Positions 8,831 to 16,622 of a stretch of 64,000 bases of DNA are shown piece by piece. The stretch is from a virus (Duplodnaviria > Caudoviricetes), in the IMG/VR virus record IMGVR_UViG_3300036802_000003, positions 32,001-96,000 of that record. One strand, given 5' to 3'. Under the pieces are notes generated by a model. That model ran no database searches. It saw nothing but the letters and a program-made list of their open reading frames with translations, and was not told the DNA's origin. The stretch's first letter is position 1; every line of letters begins with the position of its first letter. Position numbers and translations under genes: made by a program.

Positions 8831-9679
8831 ATGAATAGTGATAATATTGTAAGGACTCCTATTGTCGTAAATAGAAGTCCTATATCTGTATCTTTTTGTC
8901 ACTGCTACAATCAAAAAATCGTTAAGCACAATGACCACGCATATGCGGTGTTGGGAGATAGTATGAGTGTAGGTGACCTTAAAGACTACCTAATGTTAGA
9001 GTTACCAAATCCTATATACTTCACTCACCTAGTAAGCAACTGGGAAGAGAAGATTAATCTAGTGCTGGATAACAATACACCAGTGATTCTAAAGACAGGA
9101 AAGGCGATACCTATCTATCTTGTTAAGAAGATGGGGGAACAGAACCGCTCGACTTTGAGGGTTGTTATTAACTCTCTAGAGGACTCTGCACGAAAGTTGG
9201 TACAGCAGGAGTCCTCCGAGATGAAAGACATCAGGGAGATGATGTTTGTAGCAAAAGCGTGGAAAGTTTTCGTGTCGTGTCACGTAGATTACTTCCCTCA
9301 TATAATGAAGCCATTAGACTTATTGCAACTGGTGGAGATGAATAAAAGCTTGGTATCCTCTATTACGATAGACTTCCCAGCCTTTACAACGGAATTCTTA
9401 GAAGCAATGGTAGACCGATGGCAGATGATTAACCCACACTTTATGGAACATATCCAAAAGTACTATTTAAAAGATGAACACGGTATATATCAGCCTAGAT
9501 GTAAGGCTGAGACACTGTCTAAACTAGATAACTTTGTCAAGGGTAGACGTGTTAATATCATAGACCTTCCAGATCACAACGTTACAGAGTATCATACTGA
9601 AGAGCCACCATTTGGTATATCTTATGATAATCATGAACCAGTTACTTGTGGTAAATGTGGGAGACTTTTATATGCATAA
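8831..9679 (+). CDS. hypothetical protein, possibly a degenerate radical-SAM/SPL-like barrel
   Basis: RBS AGGAGG; VILKT, INSL and YFPHI segments resemble an SPL-like barrel; no CxxxCxxC. Confidence 0.5.
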   Translation: MNSDNIVRTPIVVNRSPISVSFCHCYNQKIVKHNDHAYAVLGDSMSVGDLKDYLMLELPNPIYFTHLVSNWEEKINLVLDNNTPVILKTGKAIPIYLVKKMGEQNRSTLRVVINSLEDSARKLVQQESSEMKDIREMMFVAKAWKVFVSCHVDYFPHIMKPLDLLQLVEMNKSLVSSITIDFPAFTTEFLEAMVDRWQMINPHFMEHIQKYYLKDEHGIYQPRCKAETLSKLDNFVKGRRVNIIDLPDHNVTEYHTEEPPFGISYDNHEPVTCGKCGRLLYA

Positions 9680-9680
9680 C

Positions 9681-9711
9681 AAAAAGGTAGCCCATTACAG
9701 GCTACCTTTTA
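9681..9711. terminator. bidirectional intrinsic terminator
   Basis: AAAAAGGTAGCC-loop-GGCTACCTTTT between convergent genes. Confidence 0.8.
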
Positions 9712-10519
9712 ATATTGAATTTATTATGCTTGTGAAGTCCTCATGTGTACCGCTCAAGAATCTAACCATCGAGCCATGTGTATAGTGCCTCATCTCATTT
9801 ACCCTTTTGGTAAATCCATTCTTAGTTAACAGTAGAACACGTGGAAACGTAGGATTCTTGAACACCCTTGCCCATTCCTTTTTAGCCCACTGTTTGGACA
9901 CATAGTAATCTTTGTAATTGTCAATCTTGTTCTTGATAACTGGTAACCTCTCCGTACCCATGTCGACCTCAATGCAGAATCCATATCCTTTACCCTTACA
10001 CTTAAATATGCAAACAATGTCGGGCTTAATGTAACTGTCATTAAAGTGGCACTTCTCTTCCGTCTCATAATATATCATCTCTCCCCCTAGTTCTCTAAGA
10101 ACTTCCTGTATCAAGCATTCACACTCATTAATGGCAACTCTGTGGTGAAACCCATCTACTAGTGTTCGCTGACCAGAAGAGTCATACTTGATTGGCTTGC
10201 TATATCGTTCTATATCCAGCAAGATTATTCCTGCCCTATCAATACATATGTGCTGTTGAGCACTTCCCTGCCCTAAAGGTACAGGAGGAACTATTCTATC
10301 TATCACATGCTTGTTGAACAGTATCTTCAACCTATTGTTAAGCCTTTCGGTGCTAGCAAATTCTGGGTAAAGGCGTTGTATCTGGTTTCTCTTTAGCACC
10401 CTCTTATCAGCCAGTAATCTTAACAACCCCATATCCCTCTCTGTAATGTTGTTGCAGTTATTGTAAACCCACTCTTTGGTAATCTGCTTTACCTCTGGAC
10501 GCTTATAAATACCTTTCAT
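9695..10519 (-). CDS. Replication-relaxation (Replic_Relax) family protein: wHTH plus restriction-endonuclease fold
   Basis: ITERD..LL..L, RL..L, HRVAINE, IKPD, IEVDMGTE, KIDNY, FPRVLLLT. Confidence 0.85.
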   Translation of the reverse strand: MKGIYKRPEVKQITKEWVYNNCNNITERDMGLLRLLADKRVLKRNQIQRLYPEFASTERLNNRLKILFNKHVIDRIVPPVPLGQGSAQQHICIDRAGIILLDIERYSKPIKYDSSGQRTLVDGFHHRVAINECECLIQEVLRELGGEMIYYETEEKCHFNDSYIKPDIVCIFKCKGKGYGFCIEVDMGTERLPVIKNKIDNYKDYYVSKQWAKKEWARVFKNPTFPRVLLLTKNGFTKRVNEMRHYTHGSMVRFLSGTHEDFTSIINSILKGSL

Positions 10520-10520
10520 A

Positions 10521-13256
10521 TCAGCCTTCCTCCAGTCCATCATCATTTAATACTTCCTCTAGTAATTCCATTATTTCCTCTGCACCTTCTTCATCACCAT
10601 CCTCTAGTAGCTTAGTTACTAGTGCACCAGCATCCTTTTCTAGTGTACGCAATTCCTCTTCATGTTGTTCTCTACGCTCATCTTCATCAATCTCAATAGG
10701 GGTGTTTTTTGGTGGGGTTTTGCCCTTCTTGATGTCTTCCTCTACTAACTCGACACTGAACTCCGCATTGTTCTTGTATCGGAACAACTCATTCAGCACT
10801 TCCTGTTTCGGTCTTCCCATAAGCTTTGCATTCTCATCGTATAAGTCATTATTGTTATACTTCTTGTATCTCTTTTCAGGCTCATTAATAGCCTTAACCA
10901 TAAATGGAGGAGTAGCTTCACCCTTCTTATTGTACATCTTTAGCTTGACGATTGCATGATGCTTAGGCATACCCTTTGCTATTTGGTCTGCACTAAACTC
11001 TGGTTGAATAACAGACTCCAGTTCTTTCAAGTTATCTCTATCTGTTTGGAATACTACATAGTGTGGACCAGCCTTACGTATCATCTTAGGCAAGGACTTA
11101 TCCATAGCCTTTAACTGCTCCCACCCATGGAACATAAATGTTAGACCACAACGGTACTTTCTATAACGAGTTAACATATTTCTCCAACGCTCACTACCTT
11201 TGATATAATGGTCTGGCTCATCTAGTATAATGAAGCATGGCTTACGGTCATCCTCTTCCTCGATATCCTCCCTGCTAATGATGGCAAGGTTGAATTTAGA
11301 TATTAAGAAGGATACCAATGCAGTCTGGTTCTCTTCTCCTAATGTCTCATTAGCCTTGACTAATACTAGGCAACCCTCATCCATCCACTTTCTGAAGTCT
11401 ACTATATATTCACCATTCTCATCCTTTTTAGGCTTCTGAAGTATGAAACTCTTTAGAGCCTTCTTACGCATTACAACCGCTAAACGTCTGAATGCTTGTT
11501 CATATATAGCTTTTCTGTCCTCTTTAGACATCTTCTCATGGAAGTACTCCCAATCACTACGCAACTCTGGGTCATCAATATGAGGAATAATGCTGGCACG
11601 GTACTCCGCATTACTCAGCATATTCTCTATATCCTGCAACGTTGCATCTGGAGTAGTGTATACTGCACGTACAGCATTCTCAACCCAGATTCTAGATGTC
11701 ATGCTTAACTCCGTACCTGCAACTAACTCAACGTATGACAGAATCTCTTCAGTAATTAAATCCTCAATAACATCAGCATTTCTACCTCTAAATATCTCAT
11801 TCCATCCTAACCCTACTGGGTTCTCTGAATTTAAGAAATCTATTATCTTTACCTTATGTCTCTTCTCTGGTGGAACTAGATTCAGTATCCTCTGTGCTAA
11901 CTTACCATCTGCCGCATCTACTACCATAGACCCATAACCTTTCTCCAGTGCATCTAGTGCAAAGCTAGCTGCAAAGGTAGACTTACCGCTACCTGGCTCT
12001 CCTATGACCACACGTGACATACACAGTAGGTTAGGGTTATCTCCTGCGAAGTATACTGTCTTAGTTTCACCATCTGTGTCCTCATATGTCGCAAACGGTA
12101 TACCCTTACCATCATCCTCAAATATTTCCTTAGGAATATCTGCTGAACTTCTATGCTGAACAGTATCTAGCTCATTTTGGTGCTCCATTTGTAGTACTTG
12201 GTCTGGTACCTGTATAATCTTAGCTAACTCTAGGGAGCATAGCTCATCTCCATTCATCTTAACAACCATCTTACGGTCTCTAATATTCTTGAGGGCTTTA
12301 ATTTTGTCTCTACCCTCTACTTCTTTCGCCACTAGTTTGTTATCCCCTTCTAAAGGGTGGAAACCTGCTGTAAGGCTTCTCGTGATAGCTCTACGTCTAT
12401 CTTCATCATCAGATATAGCTATTGCATTAAAGTTAATCTTGAACCCCTCACTATACTTCTTACGTAGTGAGGATTTAGAACGTCCCTCATGTGCCTTTCG
12501 CTTTAGCGACTCTCTAAATTCAGTATTCATCTCCCATCCAGGTATGAGGAAATCTCCTACTATGTTCATAAGTTCTTCAAGAACAAGACCCATGACGTTA
12601 GCCAAGCCCACCAAGACGTTTTTTGATGTAAACATCGTACCTTTTTTCTTAGGGATGACGTTCTTCTCCTTGATATTTTCACCAATCCCAACCATAGTCT
12701 CATTCCAAGACTCACCAAGCGGTCTCATCCCTAGTTGTAGTATCGCATAATCCTCATCCTTGAGATAGTTTGTAGTCGTCAGGATAGAGTCAAGTGGGGT
12801 ATACTTAGGGTTCTCCATGTCCAAGGCTAGTGCTGGGTGATTCTGCAAGGACATTTTGGTAACACTAGTATTGTCCATGTGAAGGTTAGGCAGAGGGTCT
12901 TTCACCTCCCTCACCGTAGAACGTTTCCAGCATCTTCTTATCTGCCTAGTAAGTGCATCCTTTAAATGGTCTTTATCAGGTATAACCAAATAGAACTTTA
13001 CCTGACCTTTGTGTATGACCACTTCCCACCATATATTCATCTCTGGAGTGTATATAAGTCTACCACCTCCAAAGTTTATACGCTTGTTTAGTGGAGTAAA
13101 CAATGTTGCAAACTCTGTTATAAGCCATCTAACCCCTGCATTGGACGTCATCTTACTAGGAATAACCTCCAGTGTCACATACTGTATTTCCTCTTTCTCT
13201 ACTAAACGTATCTTCTCCTTAGTAGTTGGATTAACAATATTAACCTCTGGTTGCAT
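10521..13256 (-). CDS. VirB4/VirD4 (TraG/TrwB-HerA-FtsK superfamily) ATPase, 911 aa
   Basis: Walker A GEPGSGKST, VVDAADG, Walker B IILDEP, RKYR arginine-finger region. Confidence 0.85.
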   Translation of the reverse strand: MQPEVNIVNPTTKEKIRLVEKEEIQYVTLEVIPSKMTSNAGVRWLITEFATLFTPLNKRINFGGGRLIYTPEMNIWWEVVIHKGQVKFYLVIPDKDHLKDALTRQIRRCWKRSTVREVKDPLPNLHMDNTSVTKMSLQNHPALALDMENPKYTPLDSILTTTNYLKDEDYAILQLGMRPLGESWNETMVGIGENIKEKNVIPKKKGTMFTSKNVLVGLANVMGLVLEELMNIVGDFLIPGWEMNTEFRESLKRKAHEGRSKSSLRKKYSEGFKINFNAIAISDDEDRRRAITRSLTAGFHPLEGDNKLVAKEVEGRDKIKALKNIRDRKMVVKMNGDELCSLELAKIIQVPDQVLQMEHQNELDTVQHRSSADIPKEIFEDDGKGIPFATYEDTDGETKTVYFAGDNPNLLCMSRVVIGEPGSGKSTFAASFALDALEKGYGSMVVDAADGKLAQRILNLVPPEKRHKVKIIDFLNSENPVGLGWNEIFRGRNADVIEDLITEEILSYVELVAGTELSMTSRIWVENAVRAVYTTPDATLQDIENMLSNAEYRASIIPHIDDPELRSDWEYFHEKMSKEDRKAIYEQAFRRLAVVMRKKALKSFILQKPKKDENGEYIVDFRKWMDEGCLVLVKANETLGEENQTALVSFLISKFNLAIISREDIEEEDDRKPCFIILDEPDHYIKGSERWRNMLTRYRKYRCGLTFMFHGWEQLKAMDKSLPKMIRKAGPHYVVFQTDRDNLKELESVIQPEFSADQIAKGMPKHHAIVKLKMYNKKGEATPPFMVKAINEPEKRYKKYNNNDLYDENAKLMGRPKQEVLNELFRYKNNAEFSVELVEEDIKKGKTPPKNTPIEIDEDERREQHEEELRTLEKDAGALVTKLLEDGDEEGAEEIMELLEEVLNDDGLEEG

Positions 13257-13267
13257 CTTAATCCCTC

Positions 13268-13468
13268 CTATTTAAACCATCCTTGCATAAATTCTGGTAA
13301 CACGTACATCATCTCTTCCCTAGCCTTCTCACCTATAGACTCAAACGTTGCATCAAAGATACCACCCATTATACCACCAATGAACTTTAGACCATTCCCA
13401 GATAGCTCTGGTACTGCTAGAGACACCACCACATATATACAAGAGTATGCTAACTTCCTTATCTCCAT
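13268..13468 (-). CDS. small membrane protein (66 aa)
   Basis: RBS GGAGG; hydrophobic N-terminus; packed in operon. Confidence 0.7.
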   Translation of the reverse strand: MEIRKLAYSCIYVVVSLAVPELSGNGLKFIGGIMGGIFDATFESIGEKAREEMMYVLPEFMQGWFK

Positions 13469-13469
13469 A

Positions 13470-13613
13470 TTAGTGACCTCCCATCCACATACCCATCAGC
13501 ACTTTGACAGTCTTATATGCCACTTGATATGAGAATCCAGGAGCTATATACTCGATGGCTCCCATTATCAAGAGCGTCTTAGCTATACTTCCAACCAGCT
13601 TAACCCAGAACAT
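13470..13613 (-). CDS. small membrane protein (47 aa, not in ORF track)
   Basis: GGAGG RBS; MFWVKLVGSIAKTLLIMGAIEYIAPGFSYQVAYKTVKVLMGMWMGGH. Confidence 0.7.
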   Translation of the reverse strand: MFWVKLVGSIAKTLLIMGAIEYIAPGFSYQVAYKTVKVLMGMWMGGH

Positions 13614-13614
13614 A

Positions 13615-13749
13615 TTATTGTACCTCCAAGAGTACTTCTACTGCCTTATTAACTGACCATGTTAACACCTTGATAGTCACCATACCTGCTGTAACCAACC
13701 CTGCACCAACAACATACAACACTTTATTGCTTACTGGTTTCTTTTCCAT
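13615..13749 (-). CDS. small membrane protein (44 aa, not in ORF track)
   Basis: GGAGGGG RBS; MEKKPVSNKVLYVVGAGLVTAGMVTIKVLTWSVNKAVEVLLEVQ. Confidence 0.7.
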   Translation of the reverse strand: MEKKPVSNKVLYVVGAGLVTAGMVTIKVLTWSVNKAVEVLLEVQ

Positions 13750-13760
13750 CTGAACCCCTC

Positions 13761-14141
13761 CTATTGAAATTGTTTAGTATTCATGCTTAAAGCTTTGTCT
13801 AGGTCTATCTCCTTGTCTTGCTGTACAAGTATCTTTGGCTTGGATTCTTTTATCTGAGGTGCAGGCTTCTTATCTGACACTGGGAGATGAGGTTTCTGAT
13901 GTGATACTTTTTTCTTAGTTTTACTAGGGTTCTCTGGTCTCTGATGTGATTTGATAGGAGTCTGTGACATTATCTCTGATGTGATGTTATCATATAACCT
14001 CTGTGACAGCTTTGGGTCATGCTCTACTGCAAATAGTACACACTCTCTGATAAATCTACTTCTATCCCTCATATCATCCAAGTGTGCTTCCAGCCATTCT
14101 GTAGACTTAGTTGTTCTGAATGTATACTGTTTATCAGCCAT
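13761..14141 (-). CDS. ribbon-helix-helix DNA-binding protein (ParR-like adaptor)
   Basis: YTFRT strand + helix + RSRFIRECV; disordered tail; follows the actin gene. Confidence 0.7.
   Translation of the reverse strand: MADKQYTFRTTKSTEWLEAHLDDMRDRSRFIRECVLFAVEHDPKLSQRLYDNITSEIMSQTPIKSHQRPENPSKTKKKVSHQKPHLPVSDKKPAPQIKESKPKILVQQDKEIDLDKALSMNTKQFQ
13895..14008. repeat. short direct repeats inside the RHH gene
   Basis: TCTGATGTGAT at 13895, 13940, 13975; TCTGTGACA at 13961, 14000. Confidence 0.7.
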
Positions 14142-14142
14142 A

Positions 14143-15180
14143 TCACACACCCCTAATCAGATTTCTAATACCCCATTTGTGATACCCCTTAGCTACTGCA
14201 AACTGACCATTCTGTGATAGTTCTGTGTTCGGAAAGTGGTCTTTCATATGAGGATATAGTGAAGCTCCTCCCCCACCAGCAAATATTATTTTATCTAGGA
14301 AGTTAATCTCATCCTTCCAGAAGTTATGCAGTCTGTTAGTGATGTCGTAGGCTACATTCTCGTAAGCCCAGTCTATTGTTGGAGCCATGTCATACACCTT
14401 AGTTCCAGACTTCAATACTCTGCTCTGTACTACATGCTCTGCTTTGTACAGTGGGAAGTTTACTCCTGTGTGGTCTAATATATTATCTGAGACAACTTGG
14501 TTTACCGAATTCATAGCAACGCTGAAGCTAGTAGTCAGATGCTCAATGTTATTGAAGACCTCACACACATAGATGTCTGTAGTTCCAAACCCTATATCAA
14601 CTACTGCTACCCTTGACTTAGCTAAGTTTGTATCTGCTATCTCACCTTTATCATCCAATATTCTGTCCATTAATGCTCCAAATGGTTGTGGTACGAATAG
14701 ACCTTTCCTACCCTTAACTGATCCATTTACTCTTATACCAGAGGACTCTATATTGTACTCATGCTTATTGTCCATAAACAGGCTCCTAATAGCTTCCTTG
14801 TATTCATCAAAGTGGCTAACTGGTAGACCTGATACAAAGTTAGTTTCCTTTGCTCCACCATTCATCCCTAGACCGAGGATAGTCCCTAATAATATCTTTG
14901 TAACCTCACTATCAAAGCGGTCACTCGTCAGAGAGTGTTTAACGATTCTAGATTGAGTTATTGCTAAGTCCGATACAAAGTGTACACCTTGTGAATCTCT
15001 GTATTCTATGTCGTCATGCTTTTTGTCTACCGCAAACGAGTCTGTTACACTCCTGTTGAAATCCTTTAGCTTTCTATCTTTCCCTACACCTACAACCGAC
15101 TTGATTATGATTGGCTTACCATTGATAATCCCTTTTGTATACATAAACCCTAAGTCAGCCACCGTAACTGCTTTACTCAT
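14143..15180 (-). CDS. ParM/StbA-family actin-like ATPase
   Basis: DLGFMYTK, SGLP, VPQP, VDIGFGTTD, FAGGG. Confidence 0.9.
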   Translation of the reverse strand: MSKAVTVADLGFMYTKGIINGKPIIIKSVVGVGKDRKLKDFNRSVTDSFAVDKKHDDIEYRDSQGVHFVSDLAITQSRIVKHSLTSDRFDSEVTKILLGTILGLGMNGGAKETNFVSGLPVSHFDEYKEAIRSLFMDNKHEYNIESSGIRVNGSVKGRKGLFVPQPFGALMDRILDDKGEIADTNLAKSRVAVVDIGFGTTDIYVCEVFNNIEHLTTSFSVAMNSVNQVVSDNILDHTGVNFPLYKAEHVVQSRVLKSGTKVYDMAPTIDWAYENVAYDITNRLHNFWKDEINFLDKIIFAGGGGASLYPHMKDHFPNTELSQNGQFAVAKGYHKWGIRNLIRGV

Positions 15181-15193
15181 ATCTGATTCCCCC

Positions 15194-15670
15194 TTAGAAA
15201 GATATAGATGAACGGATGATATTCGAAATCCAGCGTAGCATTTGGAACATAGTAGGTAACATTGAGATTCCAATATAAGCGTACCCTACGTTCTTAATTC
15301 TGTTCCATCCAGCATCCTTACTCTTACCTGTTGCCATCATGATAAACCCTATCAGAGCGTAGAACCAAAGTATTGGCTCTGCTATTGCAGTGAATATATC
15401 AACTATATCCATGAACCCTCTGCGTAGGTCGTTGGCATTTTGAGTAGCTGCAAATGCATGTGTAGCTCTCATCCCTAGTCTAGTAACGATTGCTGTAGGT
15501 AGAATCATCTCTCCGAACCATCTAACCAAGGACTTTCTACCCTGCTCTAGTTCTCCAGCATGTCGTGATTTATTTTCGTATTGAGGTTCTATGAAATCCC
15601 ACTTAATTACTTCTGGCTTCTTAACGTTGCTCACTTGAATGCCTTTACCCGTAGTTACCAATTGCGTCAT
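15194..15670 (-). CDS. membrane protein, TrbC/VirB2 pilin-like
   Basis: AFAA cleavage-like motif followed by two TM helices separated by a short basic loop. Confidence 0.55.
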   Translation of the reverse strand: MTQLVTTGKGIQVSNVKKPEVIKWDFIEPQYENKSRHAGELEQGRKSLVRWFGEMILPTAIVTRLGMRATHAFAATQNANDLRRGFMDIVDIFTAIAEPILWFYALIGFIMMATGKSKDAGWNRIKNVGYAYIGISMLPTMFQMLRWISNIIRSSISF

Positions 15671-15820
15671 CATAATCTCCTCCATACTCATTGATTTCCG
15701 CAACCCAGAGCGGAGACACCCCAAAGTAAGAAAAAATGTTTCGGTTTTGCTGGAGAGTGGGACACCTAGAGAATCAAAGGGTGTACTAGCATTGCCCCCT
15801 CATTACCAAAAAGTGACGGT

Positions 15821-15846
15821 GGGTCGTTTCGGGGGGTCGTTTCGGG
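15821..15846. repeat. tandem direct repeat upstream of the inverted operon
   Basis: GGTCGTTTCGGG twice; partial TGTTTCGG near 15737. Confidence 0.6.
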
Positions 15847-15977
15847 TTTGCTTTAACTTTACGTTGGTCTAGCTTGTCACATTACTAGGGACGAGTTCAA
15901 TGCCATTGCTTCCTGCTAATACGGAAGAATATTCCTGTCGTGGATTGGGGAAATCTAAGTTCAGGGGGTGGCTATCA

Positions 15978-16079
15978 ATGGAAGAGAAGAAAGCACTAGG
16001 TGAACGTATCTTTGACTTTTCAATAAGAGGGCTTATAGTACTCTATTTCATAAAAGCGGCAGTGGAAGTATTTGGCTAG
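15978..16079 (+). CDS. 33-aa single-TM peptide
   Basis: RBS AGGGGGTG; MEEKKALGERIFDFSIRGLIVLYFIKAAVEVFG. Confidence 0.6.
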   Translation: MEEKKALGERIFDFSIRGLIVLYFIKAAVEVFG

Positions 16080-16123
16080 AACACCGAGGAATCCCCACGG
16101 AGGGGAGGGAAAAAAGAAAAAGG

Positions 16124-16240
16124 AAGAGAGAGCAACGCACTACGAACTGGCATAGTGAATAGTATAGGGAAGTGAAGATACCTCGATTTCATGACTCTGT
16201 AGCTGATTCCCTAGTTTCGTAGCTACCTTGTGTCTCTCTT
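16124..16240. ncRNA. candidate long irregular hairpin RNA
   Basis: nested pairs AAGAGAGA/TCTCTCTT, CTACGAA/TTCGTAG, TAGGGAA/TTCCCTA. Confidence 0.45.
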
Positions 16241-16310
16241 TTACTGTGTATTATACTATAGTCTCCTCCATGATAATTTATTATAGACAAGTTATTTTGG
16301 AGGTGTAGGA

Positions 16311-16622
16311 ATGGCTATTAACAAATATATCCATGATGTAAATGCTTATGTGGAGCAACAAAAACGCTACGGAACTGACAGTGTTAAGGTTGAGCTGGAT
16401 GACACTAATAACAAGGTTACTGTTGCATTGATTGATGCATACAACAACCCTGTTGCAGGTGCACCACTATTGGTAGATGAGAAATTACCTGATGCACGTA
16501 AAGCTGTCAAGTTCTATGAAGAGATGATTCACCAGTTAGAGCAAGGTGATATCATCCGTAACCTACAGACTACTGGGAAACCAACATCTGGTGGATACAA
16601 CGATAATAACAGTCGCTACTAA
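16311..16622 (+). CDS. hypothetical protein (monocistronic, possibly virion)
   Basis: GGAGGTG RBS, own terminator. Confidence 0.75.
   Translation: MAINKYIHDVNAYVEQQKRYGTDSVKVELDDTNNKVTVALIDAYNNPVAGAPLLVDEKLPDARKAVKFYEEMIHQLEQGDIIRNLQTTGKPTSGGYNDNNSRY

Follow-up and report, generated by a model that had tools for sequence, protein, structure and literature searches.

Why should a virulent phage carry, packed into one inverted operon, what look like the pilin, ATPase and relaxase of a type IV secretion system (T4SS) together with a plasmid-type actin partition pair? The question is raised by a 64,000-nt stretch of a tailed-phage genome (IMG/VR record IMGVR_UViG_3300036802_000003; Caudoviricetes), which we call the window and which corresponds to bases 32001-96000 of a record of 139,244 bp with direct terminal repeats. 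The operon has eight genes and occupies positions 9695-15673 of the window, on the minus strand. We show that it is the copy, in the lineage of Bacillus phage CP-51, of the SPO1 gene 29.1-27.3 operon. We also show that its core (propilin, three peptides, two-domain VirB4 and MOB_C-family nuclease) is derived from type IV secretion, and that the pilin gene is separated from the peptide genes by an inserted cassette of the ParM/ParR type (ParMR). The initial annotation of this DNA had proposed such a combination of a type II partition pair with secretion-type parts and a nuclease, and the combination is indeed there. In operon order, the genes are:

15194-15673, minus strand: pilin-like protein (VirB2/TrbC-like propilin), 159 aa; orthologue of SPO1 gp29.1
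14143-15180, minus strand: ParM-like actin, 345 aa; orthologue of SPO1 gp27.9
13761-14141, minus strand: ParR-like adaptor, 126 aa; orthologue of SPO1 gp27.8
13615-13749, minus strand: single-pass membrane peptide, 44 aa; orthologue of SPO1 gp27.7; phrog_15178, E 6e-27
13470-13613, minus strand: hydrophobic peptide, 47 aa; orthologue of SPO1 gp27.6 (by blastp); phrog_23813, E 5e-35
13268-13468, minus strand: peptide, 66 aa; positional orthologue of SPO1 gp27.5; phrog_15417, E 4e-40
10521-13256, minus strand: VirB4-family ATPase, 911 aa; orthologue of SPO1 gp27.4 and homologue of SPP1 gp32
9695-10546, minus strand: Replic_Relax nuclease, 283 aa; orthologue of SPO1 gp27.3; phrog_9381, E 6e-126

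Gene starts were corrected using ribosome-binding sites and the annotation of CP-51. Consecutive genes are separated by 13, 1, 11, 1, 1, 11 and -26 nt, the last figure being the overlap between the ATPase and nuclease genes, and a GGAGG-type Shine-Dalgarno sequence precedes each of the eight starts. The dense packing and strong ribosome-binding sites first described for this block are thus real. So is its isolation. The map of open reading frames (ORFs) and the GC skew both place a minus-strand block at about 9.7-15.7 kb and the next one only near 54 kb, with a skew below zero at about 10-16 kb and 54-58 kb and nowhere else. The remaining minus-strand ORFs of at least 100 aa before 53 kb are all nested in plus-strand genes, of which they are mere shadows, and this is therefore the sole minus-strand block of the first 53 kb.

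From position 9600 to 15800 the window is 92.5% identical at the nucleotide level to CP-51 (Herelleviridae, Spounavirinae, Siminovitchvirus) and about 90% identical to phages JL and Shanette. By this measure the source virus is classed as a CP-51-type, SPO1-related virulent myovirus of the Bacillus cereus group. The same eight genes occur in SPO1 (29.1, 27.9, 27.8, 27.7, 27.6, 27.5, 27.4 and 27.3), in the same order, in the same inverted orientation and in an identical genomic slot, between gp27.1 and the genes for head decoration and dUMP hydroxymethylase. The CP-51 counterparts are gp97-gp90. The operons of both phages are orthologous to the one described here and show no structural difference from it; most of their genes are labelled 'hypothetical'. 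Identity to the SPO1 counterparts ranges from 31 to 58% for the genes of the operon and from 44 to 57% for the flanking core genes. Shared order and identity at the level of core genes show that, among SPO1-like phages, the operon was inherited vertically with the genome and kept intact.

The proteins of the operon

The 911-aa ATPase had been labelled VirB4/VirD4-like. Judging from its predicted folds, it is a VirB4 in both domains and not a VirD4 coupling protein, because it has a VirB4-type N-terminal domain (NTD) and C-terminal domain (CTD) and lacks an N-terminal membrane anchor. The first half of the label can be kept and the second dropped. Foldseek matches the full-length model (pLDDT 74.5) to R388 TrwK from end to end (E 1e-15). 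The protein divides into an NTD (residues 21-361), a RecA-like CTD (374-799) and an acidic helical C-tail (about 858-911), with a Walker A motif (GEPGSGKS at 419) and a Walker B motif (FIILDE at 675) that are invariant in two alignments of homologues. The CTD matches the VirB4 of T. pseudethanolicus (4ag5) with Z 25.7, nearly tied with DndH-C (Z 24.5), TrwB (Z 24.1) and DotL (Z 23.5). The N-terminal 372 residues were folded separately from a deeper alignment (pLDDT 85.9, pTM 0.82). This isolated NTD matches residues 34-425 of R388 TrwK with Z 15.3 (rmsd 3.7 Å, 244 aa; the runner-up has Z 8.7), and its top 10 Foldseek matches are all TrwK (E 5e-6 to 2e-4). An NTD of about 360 aa of the VirB4 type speaks against a VirD4 protein, the likeness of the CTD to TrwB (Z 24) is common to all VirB4, and hydropathy reveals no transmembrane segment at the N-terminus.

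No VirB4 model of Pfam or NCBIfam scores above its cut-off for this protein, which has P-loop-level matches only (such as TraC-F-type, E 0.059), and its precomputed Pfam family is DUF8128, also the class of the NTD. A homologue search repeated with a diverse alignment reached no further. With 58% identity to SPO1 gp27.4, the ATPase gene is the best conserved of its neighbourhood. It shares both folds with the VirB4 proteins of T4SSs (R388 TrwK, T. pseudethanolicus VirB4), and the order pilin, small membrane protein(s), VirB4 parallels virB2-virB3-virB4. Unlike those VirB4s, it has a hydrophobic helical hairpin inserted in the NTD at residues ~208-258, a possible membrane anchor, and the strongly acidic helical tail at 858-911, which recalls the tails of coupling proteins. 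A complex prediction of the NTD (1-372) with the 66-aa peptide scored 0.01, which counts neither way.

The fold of the CTD invites another explanation, since it also resembles the HerA and DndH ATPases found in defence systems (Z 18-24), and PADLOC returns a match of the ATPase to mad8 (E 1.5e-11). The operon could be an exclusion or defence island, in which membrane proteins, ATPase and PD-(D/E)XK nuclease block or destroy competing DNA, for instance of superinfecting phages or plasmids, as do pairs of HerA-type ATPases and nucleases. It would fit this idea that the module is non-essential in the laboratory (PMC3357382, PMC6316719) and that in temperate relatives the pilin-like gene, a second small membrane-protein gene and the ATPase gene lie between lysis and lysogeny genes, a 'moron' site. 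Yet, the NTD is specifically VirB4-like and not HerA-like, and the likeness to mad8 and HerA is limited to the shared P-loop domain. PADLOC finds no family for the remaining genes of the operon, and no defence architecture is known that joins ParMR to a relaxase-family nuclease. We regard a defence function as unlikely.

The nuclease was called as Replic_Relax from the start, and it matches this Pfam family (PF13814) at 68.4 bits, well above the cut-off of 25.3 (E 1e-18). It is 51% identical to SPO1 gp27.3 and consists of an N-terminal part resembling a winged helix-turn-helix and a PD-(D/E)XK core (D176, E197-x-D199), which is the fold of the family (PMC3424549). In the alignment D176 is invariant and E197-V-D199 is kept in seven of eight diverse homologues. 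CONJscan uses PF13814 as MobC, i.e. the MOB_C relaxase family (PMC5357655), and HHpred has linked the phage nuclease family to CloDF13 MobC (PMC3357382). The protein belongs to the MOB_C-type relaxase family, and nicking at an origin of transfer (oriT) would be its predicted activity. The operon had been described as lacking a relaxase. This holds for relaxases of the HUH type but is otherwise misleading, because Replic_Relax is itself the MOB_C relaxase family. In the MOB_C pairs (CloDF13 MobC and MobB; pAD1 TraX), a PD-(D/E)XK Replic_Relax nuclease likewise stands beside a conjugation-type ATPase. The partner in the window differs in being VirB4-like and soluble, and not a membrane-anchored coupling protein.

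The pilin-like protein was compared with models PF18895 and PF04956. Its match to T4SS_pilin stays below the cut-off (19.0 bits against 26.6; E 0.0015), and sub-threshold matches to the same family are found in four of the five scanned SPO1-type homologues and in orf204 of phage 0305phi8-36. TrbC is matched by the gene 5' of the ATPase in pCBH (27.7 bits, cut-off 27.9), in SP-10, in a Bacillus phage-plasmid and in a metagenomic phage contig (L036; E at most 1e-5). VirB2/TrbC-type matches upstream of the ATPase come from about ten independent contexts. By hydropathy the protein has hydrophobic segments at 48-64 (ending ...THAFA), 97-113 and 129-145. The resulting architecture, a hydrophilic N-terminus, a leader-like segment ending in AFA and two hydrophobic helices with a short basic loop (TGKSKDAGWNRIKN) between them, agrees with the pilin-like protein with two transmembrane helices proposed at the outset. 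It is the layout of a VirB2 propilin, from which cleavage of the leader and polymerisation may at most be predicted.

Each of the three peptides of 44, 47 and 66 aa has one clear hydrophobic helix, which is N-terminal in the longest. The 44-aa peptide is the best conserved and is retained in an SPO1-like genome lacking ParMR (L022, see below). The peptides noted from the sequence are hence present, but the label 'uncalled', given to two of them, could hold for some annotation pipelines at most, since all three are annotated in CP-51 (gp92-94) and in SPO1 (gp27.5-27.7).

The actin scores above the cut-offs of both ALP_N (67.6 bits) and MreB-like_C (68.6 bits), its phosphate-1, phosphate-2 and adenosine motifs are intact (DLG, DIGFGT, GGGG), and its closest solved relative is the ParM of the C. 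botulinum plasmid pCBH (6ixw, E 3e-27). All of this upholds its assignment as ParM-like. The 126-aa adaptor was said to be of the ribbon-helix-helix (RHH) type. Pfam finds no match in it, so that this call comes from sequence pattern and position, while its layout does appear ParR-like. The alignment shows a conserved N-terminal region of about 45 aa with an RHH-like strand-helix-helix pattern, followed by a basic linker that is variable and disordered and, at the C-terminus, by a conserved acidic motif (DLDKAL). One homologue matches Plasmid_stab_B, the family of R1 ParR, weakly (E 0.0012). Type II partition systems (R1 ParMRC and pCBH ParMRC) likewise consist of an actin-fold ParM with ATPase motifs followed by a small adaptor. 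Unlike them, the pair in the window is embedded in a T4SS-like operon of a virulent phage, and its centromere is known as candidate repeats only. There is a precedent for partition proteins coupled to transfer: ParM and ParR of R1 bind the relaxase, the coupling protein and the VirB4-like TraC, and boost transfer (PMC4949242).

Partition proteins may also serve the phage inside the cell. AlpA and AlpC of the Corynebacterium prophage CGP3 are a ParMR-like pair needed for efficient viral DNA replication (PMC4446434). As in the window, a phage actin and a DNA-binding adaptor act there on viral DNA, in the lytic cycle (PMC4446434, PMC5539076). Unlike our pair, AlpAC has no link to VirB4, pilin or relaxase genes. 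By analogy, the operon could be an intracellular organiser: ParMR and the membrane proteins would position replicating genomes at the membrane or the poles, Replic_Relax would nick DNA to start or switch replication, and VirB4 would remodel or anchor the complex, with no export. The labels of the nuclease, 'replication initiation by nicking' in PHROG and replication-relaxation in the Pfam description of the family, would suit such a role, as would the absence of the channel parts VirB6, VirB8 and VirD4. A VirB2-like propilin and a VirB4 are, on the other hand, hallmarks of machines that cross the envelope. The relatives of the operon bear further on this point.

Relatives and earlier descriptions

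The initial annotation knew of no described function for the module. Descriptions do exist. Pathria et al. named orf200-207 of 0305phi8-36 a 'DNA translocation operon' in 2012, with a relaxase and a translocase with membrane anchors, linked orf200 with CloDF13 MobC and noted the SPO1 homologues gp27.3, 27.4 and 27.9 (PMC3357382). Godinho et al. proposed in 2018 that SPP1 gp32 forms a trans-membrane translocon with gp31.1 and/or gp31.2 (PMC6316719). The module is therefore not new: it is already known and annotated, with functions that are so far proposals. We add a firm assignment of the ATPase to VirB4, the separability of ParMR, a distribution among endospore formers that includes a control, and the link to spore trapping by CP-51. 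The first of these departs from the 2012 study, in which the ATPase was taken as a VirD4-like coupling protein (PMC3357382); here it appears VirB4-like in both domains.

The order ParM, adaptor, pilin-like or membrane genes, ATPase and Replic_Relax recurs in two phages unrelated to the SPO1 type, the jumbo myovirus 0305phi8-36 and the Tsamsa-like siphovirus Izhevsk. As in the window, 0305phi8-36 has a ParM-like gene, a small adaptor, a pilin-like protein (orf204), the ATPase (orf201) and Replic_Relax (orf200). It differs in that a polytopic protein with about six transmembrane segments (orf203) replaces the three tiny peptides, and a virion gene on the opposite strand is inserted in the operon. 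In Izhevsk, gp242 (L008:7940-8662) is an M23 peptidase with a C-terminal hydrophobic region, encoded between gp241 and the ATPase. For gp241, the first candidate for a membrane gene of that module, no pilin-family match was found. The M23 peptidase may be the wall hydrolase that the version in the window lacks. Together with the polytopic protein of 0305phi8-36 it indicates a role that spans the envelope, which counts against an intracellular organiser.

Other relatives show how the operon can be taken apart. An SPO1-like IMG/VR genome of 141,863 bp (L022:5830-10513) encodes a pilin-like protein, peptides of 53 and 81 aa, a 967-aa ATPase and Replic_Relax, all without ParM and ParR. The partition pair is therefore separable and, going by this gene order, an optional insert in a T4SS-like core. 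That the rest of the operon persists without it counts against an organiser of replicating genomes, as does the dispensability of the module for replication in 0305phi8-36 and SPP1 (PMC3357382, PMC6316719). An integrated prophage beside mutL, miaA and hfq (L031:7812-12499) encodes ParM, proteins of 79, 70 and 123 aa and the ATPase. Its gene order matches up to the ATPase, and no relaxase gene was detected. The actin pair hence joins the ATPase even where there is no plasmid to partition, which suits an intracellular organiser. Taking both sides together, we find this explanation possible but rather doubtful.

The minimal recurring form is a trio in which the ATPase is accompanied by a pilin-like protein and a second small membrane protein. 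This trio is found in SPP1 (gp31.1/31.2/32), SP-10, Basilisk and a Terrisporobacter phage, in plasmids of C. tetani and C. botulinum (the latter with Replic_Relax), in Bacillus phage-plasmids and in metagenomic phage contigs. In SPP1, as in the window, two small membrane proteins precede a homologous ATPase of about 840 aa, though ParMR and the Replic_Relax nuclease are missing. The SPP1 genes are expressed early, and 31.2 and 32 are non-essential (PMC6316719). Beyond the SPO1-like phages, then, the operon is an accessory module shared horizontally with numerous phages and phage-plasmids of both Bacillus and Clostridium.

None of the ~15 genomic contexts that we examined has a full T4SS (VirB3, VirB6, VirB8) beside the module, in line with the expectation that it would not be linked to one elsewhere. 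The operon having no coupling protein, and the commonest form of the module being just pilin-like gene, small transmembrane protein and VirB4, one may ask whether DNA is the substrate at all. T4SSs without VirD4, such as Bordetella Ptl, export proteins. A VirB2/VirB4 machine of this kind could export a phage protein or build a short tube, a pilus-like surface structure for adhesion or contact between cells. Against this, the operon has no candidate gene for a secreted substrate, and a relaxase-family nuclease gene overlaps the ATPase gene by 26 nt in the window and follows it in SPO1, 0305phi8-36, Izhevsk, pCBH and a metagenome-assembled genome (MAG). Protein secretion or a surface structure strikes us as improbable.

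The occurrence on plasmids suggests a last alternative. The authors of the Izhevsk genome interpreted ParM, a ParG-like protein and Replic_Relax as maintenance genes of a plasmid-prophage (PMC7685451), and homologues lie on Bacillus phage-plasmids and large Clostridium plasmids. The operon might be a cassette of plasmid origin that serves an episomal or carrier state, or else a relic; ParMR would partition a plasmid-like genome, and the rest would be a decaying remnant of conjugation. But the eight genes are intact, with their catalytic motifs, and are conserved at the level of core genes between virulent SPO1 and CP-51-type phages (PMC4113786). The ATPase, supposedly part of the remnant, tops its neighbourhood in conservation, and one copy of the module sits in a prophage integrated in the chromosome. 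A relic or episomal cassette thus has little to recommend it.

Flanking signals, repeats and RNA traces

Three non-coding or repeated features accompany the genes:

9682-9710, both strands: bidirectional hairpin resembling an intrinsic terminator, AAAAGGTAGCC-N7-GGCTACCTTTT, perfect, between convergent genes
13891-13985, no strand assigned: TCTGATGTGAT, an 11-mer in three exact copies spaced by 45 and 35 bp, in the linker of the ParR-like gene
15674-15899, no strand assigned: divergent intergenic region upstream of the operon, a candidate promoter, operator or cis site

The hairpin has a stem of 11-12 bp flanked by an A-run and a T-run, and it covers the final five codons of the nuclease gene. 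A simple terminator scan did not pick it up, but folding confirmed it on the two strands, with energies of -15.9 and -17.1 kcal/mol (z -4.9 and -3.8). The bidirectional terminator that had been placed at the end of the block is well founded in this respect. A scan of positions 9500-16500 against Rfam gave no match except one below threshold at the terminator.

The upstream region is nearly invariant in CP-51-type phages and contains a tandem 13-mer (GGGTCGTTTCGGG-type) at 15817-15842. The blocks TGTGACAAGCT, AAACGACCC and TGCTAGTAC also occur 5' of the pilin gene in SPO1-like relatives. Upstream of the operon we found no match to the consensus of SPO1 middle and late promoters, and a sigma-70 scan gave sites no more numerous than in shuffled controls.

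A type II system would call for a centromere (parC), and parM is not directly preceded by an intergenic region. The 11-mer TCTGATGTGAT has no match in the 64-kb window beyond its three copies, two of which encode S-H-Q and one of which lies in a different frame; TCTGTGACA is present twice close to them. These copies are candidate centromere-like iterons. As candidate parC sites we retain both the repeats at 13891-13985 and the tandem 13-mer at 15817-15842.

Public soil metatranscriptome runs from several studies contain about 10% of the words sampled from window positions 9000-16600. Assembled contigs of 6-23 kb represent a relative with about 10% differences, at a depth of 100-150, and two of them cross the whole stretch, over genes of both strands. 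We rejected this signal as proof of transcription, the pattern being that of DNA carry-over or of a shared contaminant.

Hosts, spores and the role of the operon

Which hosts carry the module? We searched 50,697 phage records and 72,556 plasmids with three divergent ATPases, those of the window, of the Terrisporobacter phage and of phage MaeS. Full-length homologues occur only in phages or plasmids of Bacillus, Geobacillus, Lysinibacillus, Brevibacillus, Alicyclobacillus, Clostridium, Terrisporobacter and Thermoactinomyces. As a control, the large terminase of the window matches 893 phage records, among which are 345 Staphylococcus, 69 Enterococcus, 55 Listeria and 26 Lactobacillus phages. None of these ~495 phages of non-sporulating Firmicutes has the ATPase. 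The only record with a non-Firmicute host label, 'Microcystis phage MaeS' (L037, MT362618.1), does not make a convincing exception. By sequence it is a Bacillus-type phage: its ATPase shares 65% identity with the ATPases of Stills and Staley, two phages of B. megaterium. The same record encodes a spore-cortex lytic transglycosylase of the SleB type, and its host label looks doubtful. The persistence of phage genomes in spores, which the initial annotation had invoked, is documented for CP-51 itself: the phage infects sporulating cells, and its DNA is trapped in spores, where it is stable for at least 305 days (PMC4113786).

We tentatively favour, with somewhat less than even confidence, a role of the operon in placing or transferring phage DNA at the membrane. 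ParR would bind a site on the phage DNA, and ParM filaments would carry the DNA to the membrane or to the cell pole. There, the pilin-like protein and the peptides would form a small platform in the membrane, on which VirB4 hexamers would sit. The MOB_C nuclease would nick or otherwise process the phage DNA, and the ATPase would power either the assembly of a conduit or the passage of DNA through it. Phage DNA would in this way be placed or transferred, independently of virions, into a compartment that survives the infected cell. The forespore would be the most plausible destination in these hosts, a neighbouring cell being less likely. The distribution among endospore formers and the spore trapping of CP-51 fit the forespore idea, in a correlative way. 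A stronger version holds that the operon is by itself a self-sufficient, minimal type-IV-like conduit built by the phage, which sends a nicked genome delivered by ParMR through a thin septal membrane into the forespore or a chained sister cell. In this form we think the proposal unlikely.

A number of observations weigh against DNA placement or transfer. The first concern the machine. Pfam, NCBIfam and PHROGs reveal no VirB6, VirB8, wall hydrolase or VirD4 coupling protein in the operon, which had rightly been called an incomplete conjugation system. VirB4 is not known to move DNA by itself. ParMR is absent from the SPO1-like genome L022. The trio, moreover, often lacks the nuclease or ParMR (SPP1, SP-10, the Terrisporobacter phage, the C. 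tetani plasmid), so that DNA processing and partition are not obligatory partners. Its 'moron' position beside lysis and lysogeny genes in temperate relatives suits exclusion or defence equally well. The genetics are not encouraging either: deletion of the operon of 0305phi8-36 had no laboratory phenotype (PMC3357382), and the disruption of gene 31.2, together with loss of the gene 32 promoter, caused no laboratory defect in SPP1 (PMC6316719).

Others concern the hosts, where shared ancestry and culture bias confound the apparent restriction. The ATPase family comprises 3,175 clusters at 50% identity (E<1e-30), mostly metagenomic, and DUF8128 clusters are mostly placed, as a lead only, in Saccharimonadota, which are not spore formers, and in other phyla. 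A DUF8128 fusion of 2006 aa is encoded on a 321-kb metagenomic contig without a taxon label (L033:10001-16021), and a MAG labelled gammaproteobacterial has a pair formed by the ATPase CTD and Replic_Relax (L006:9767-11895). The superfamily therefore extends beyond spore formers. The survey of synteny suggested in the initial annotation hence gives a split answer: restriction to elements of spore formers is seen among cultured phages and plasmids, and metagenomic DUF8128 relatives lie outside. The gene of the 2006-aa fusion adjoins pheST and gyrBA and is preceded by small ORFs.

Strictly virulent phages conserve a set of VirB2, VirB4 and relaxase joined to an actin partition pair, an oddity that has stood unexplained since 2012. 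The role of this set could be put to the test in a tractable system, SPO1 in B. subtilis. If the operon does move or place phage DNA, it would be the smallest known machine of the T4SS type. If there is indeed a conduit into the forespore or a sister cell, virulent phages that attack endospore formers would be able to become dormant or to spread without depending on virions, and the classical spore trapping of CP-51- and SPO1-type phages would be explained. More generally, movement or placement of phage DNA by this operon would add a new way for viruses to persist or spread in spore formers, including the B. cereus group and the clostridia.

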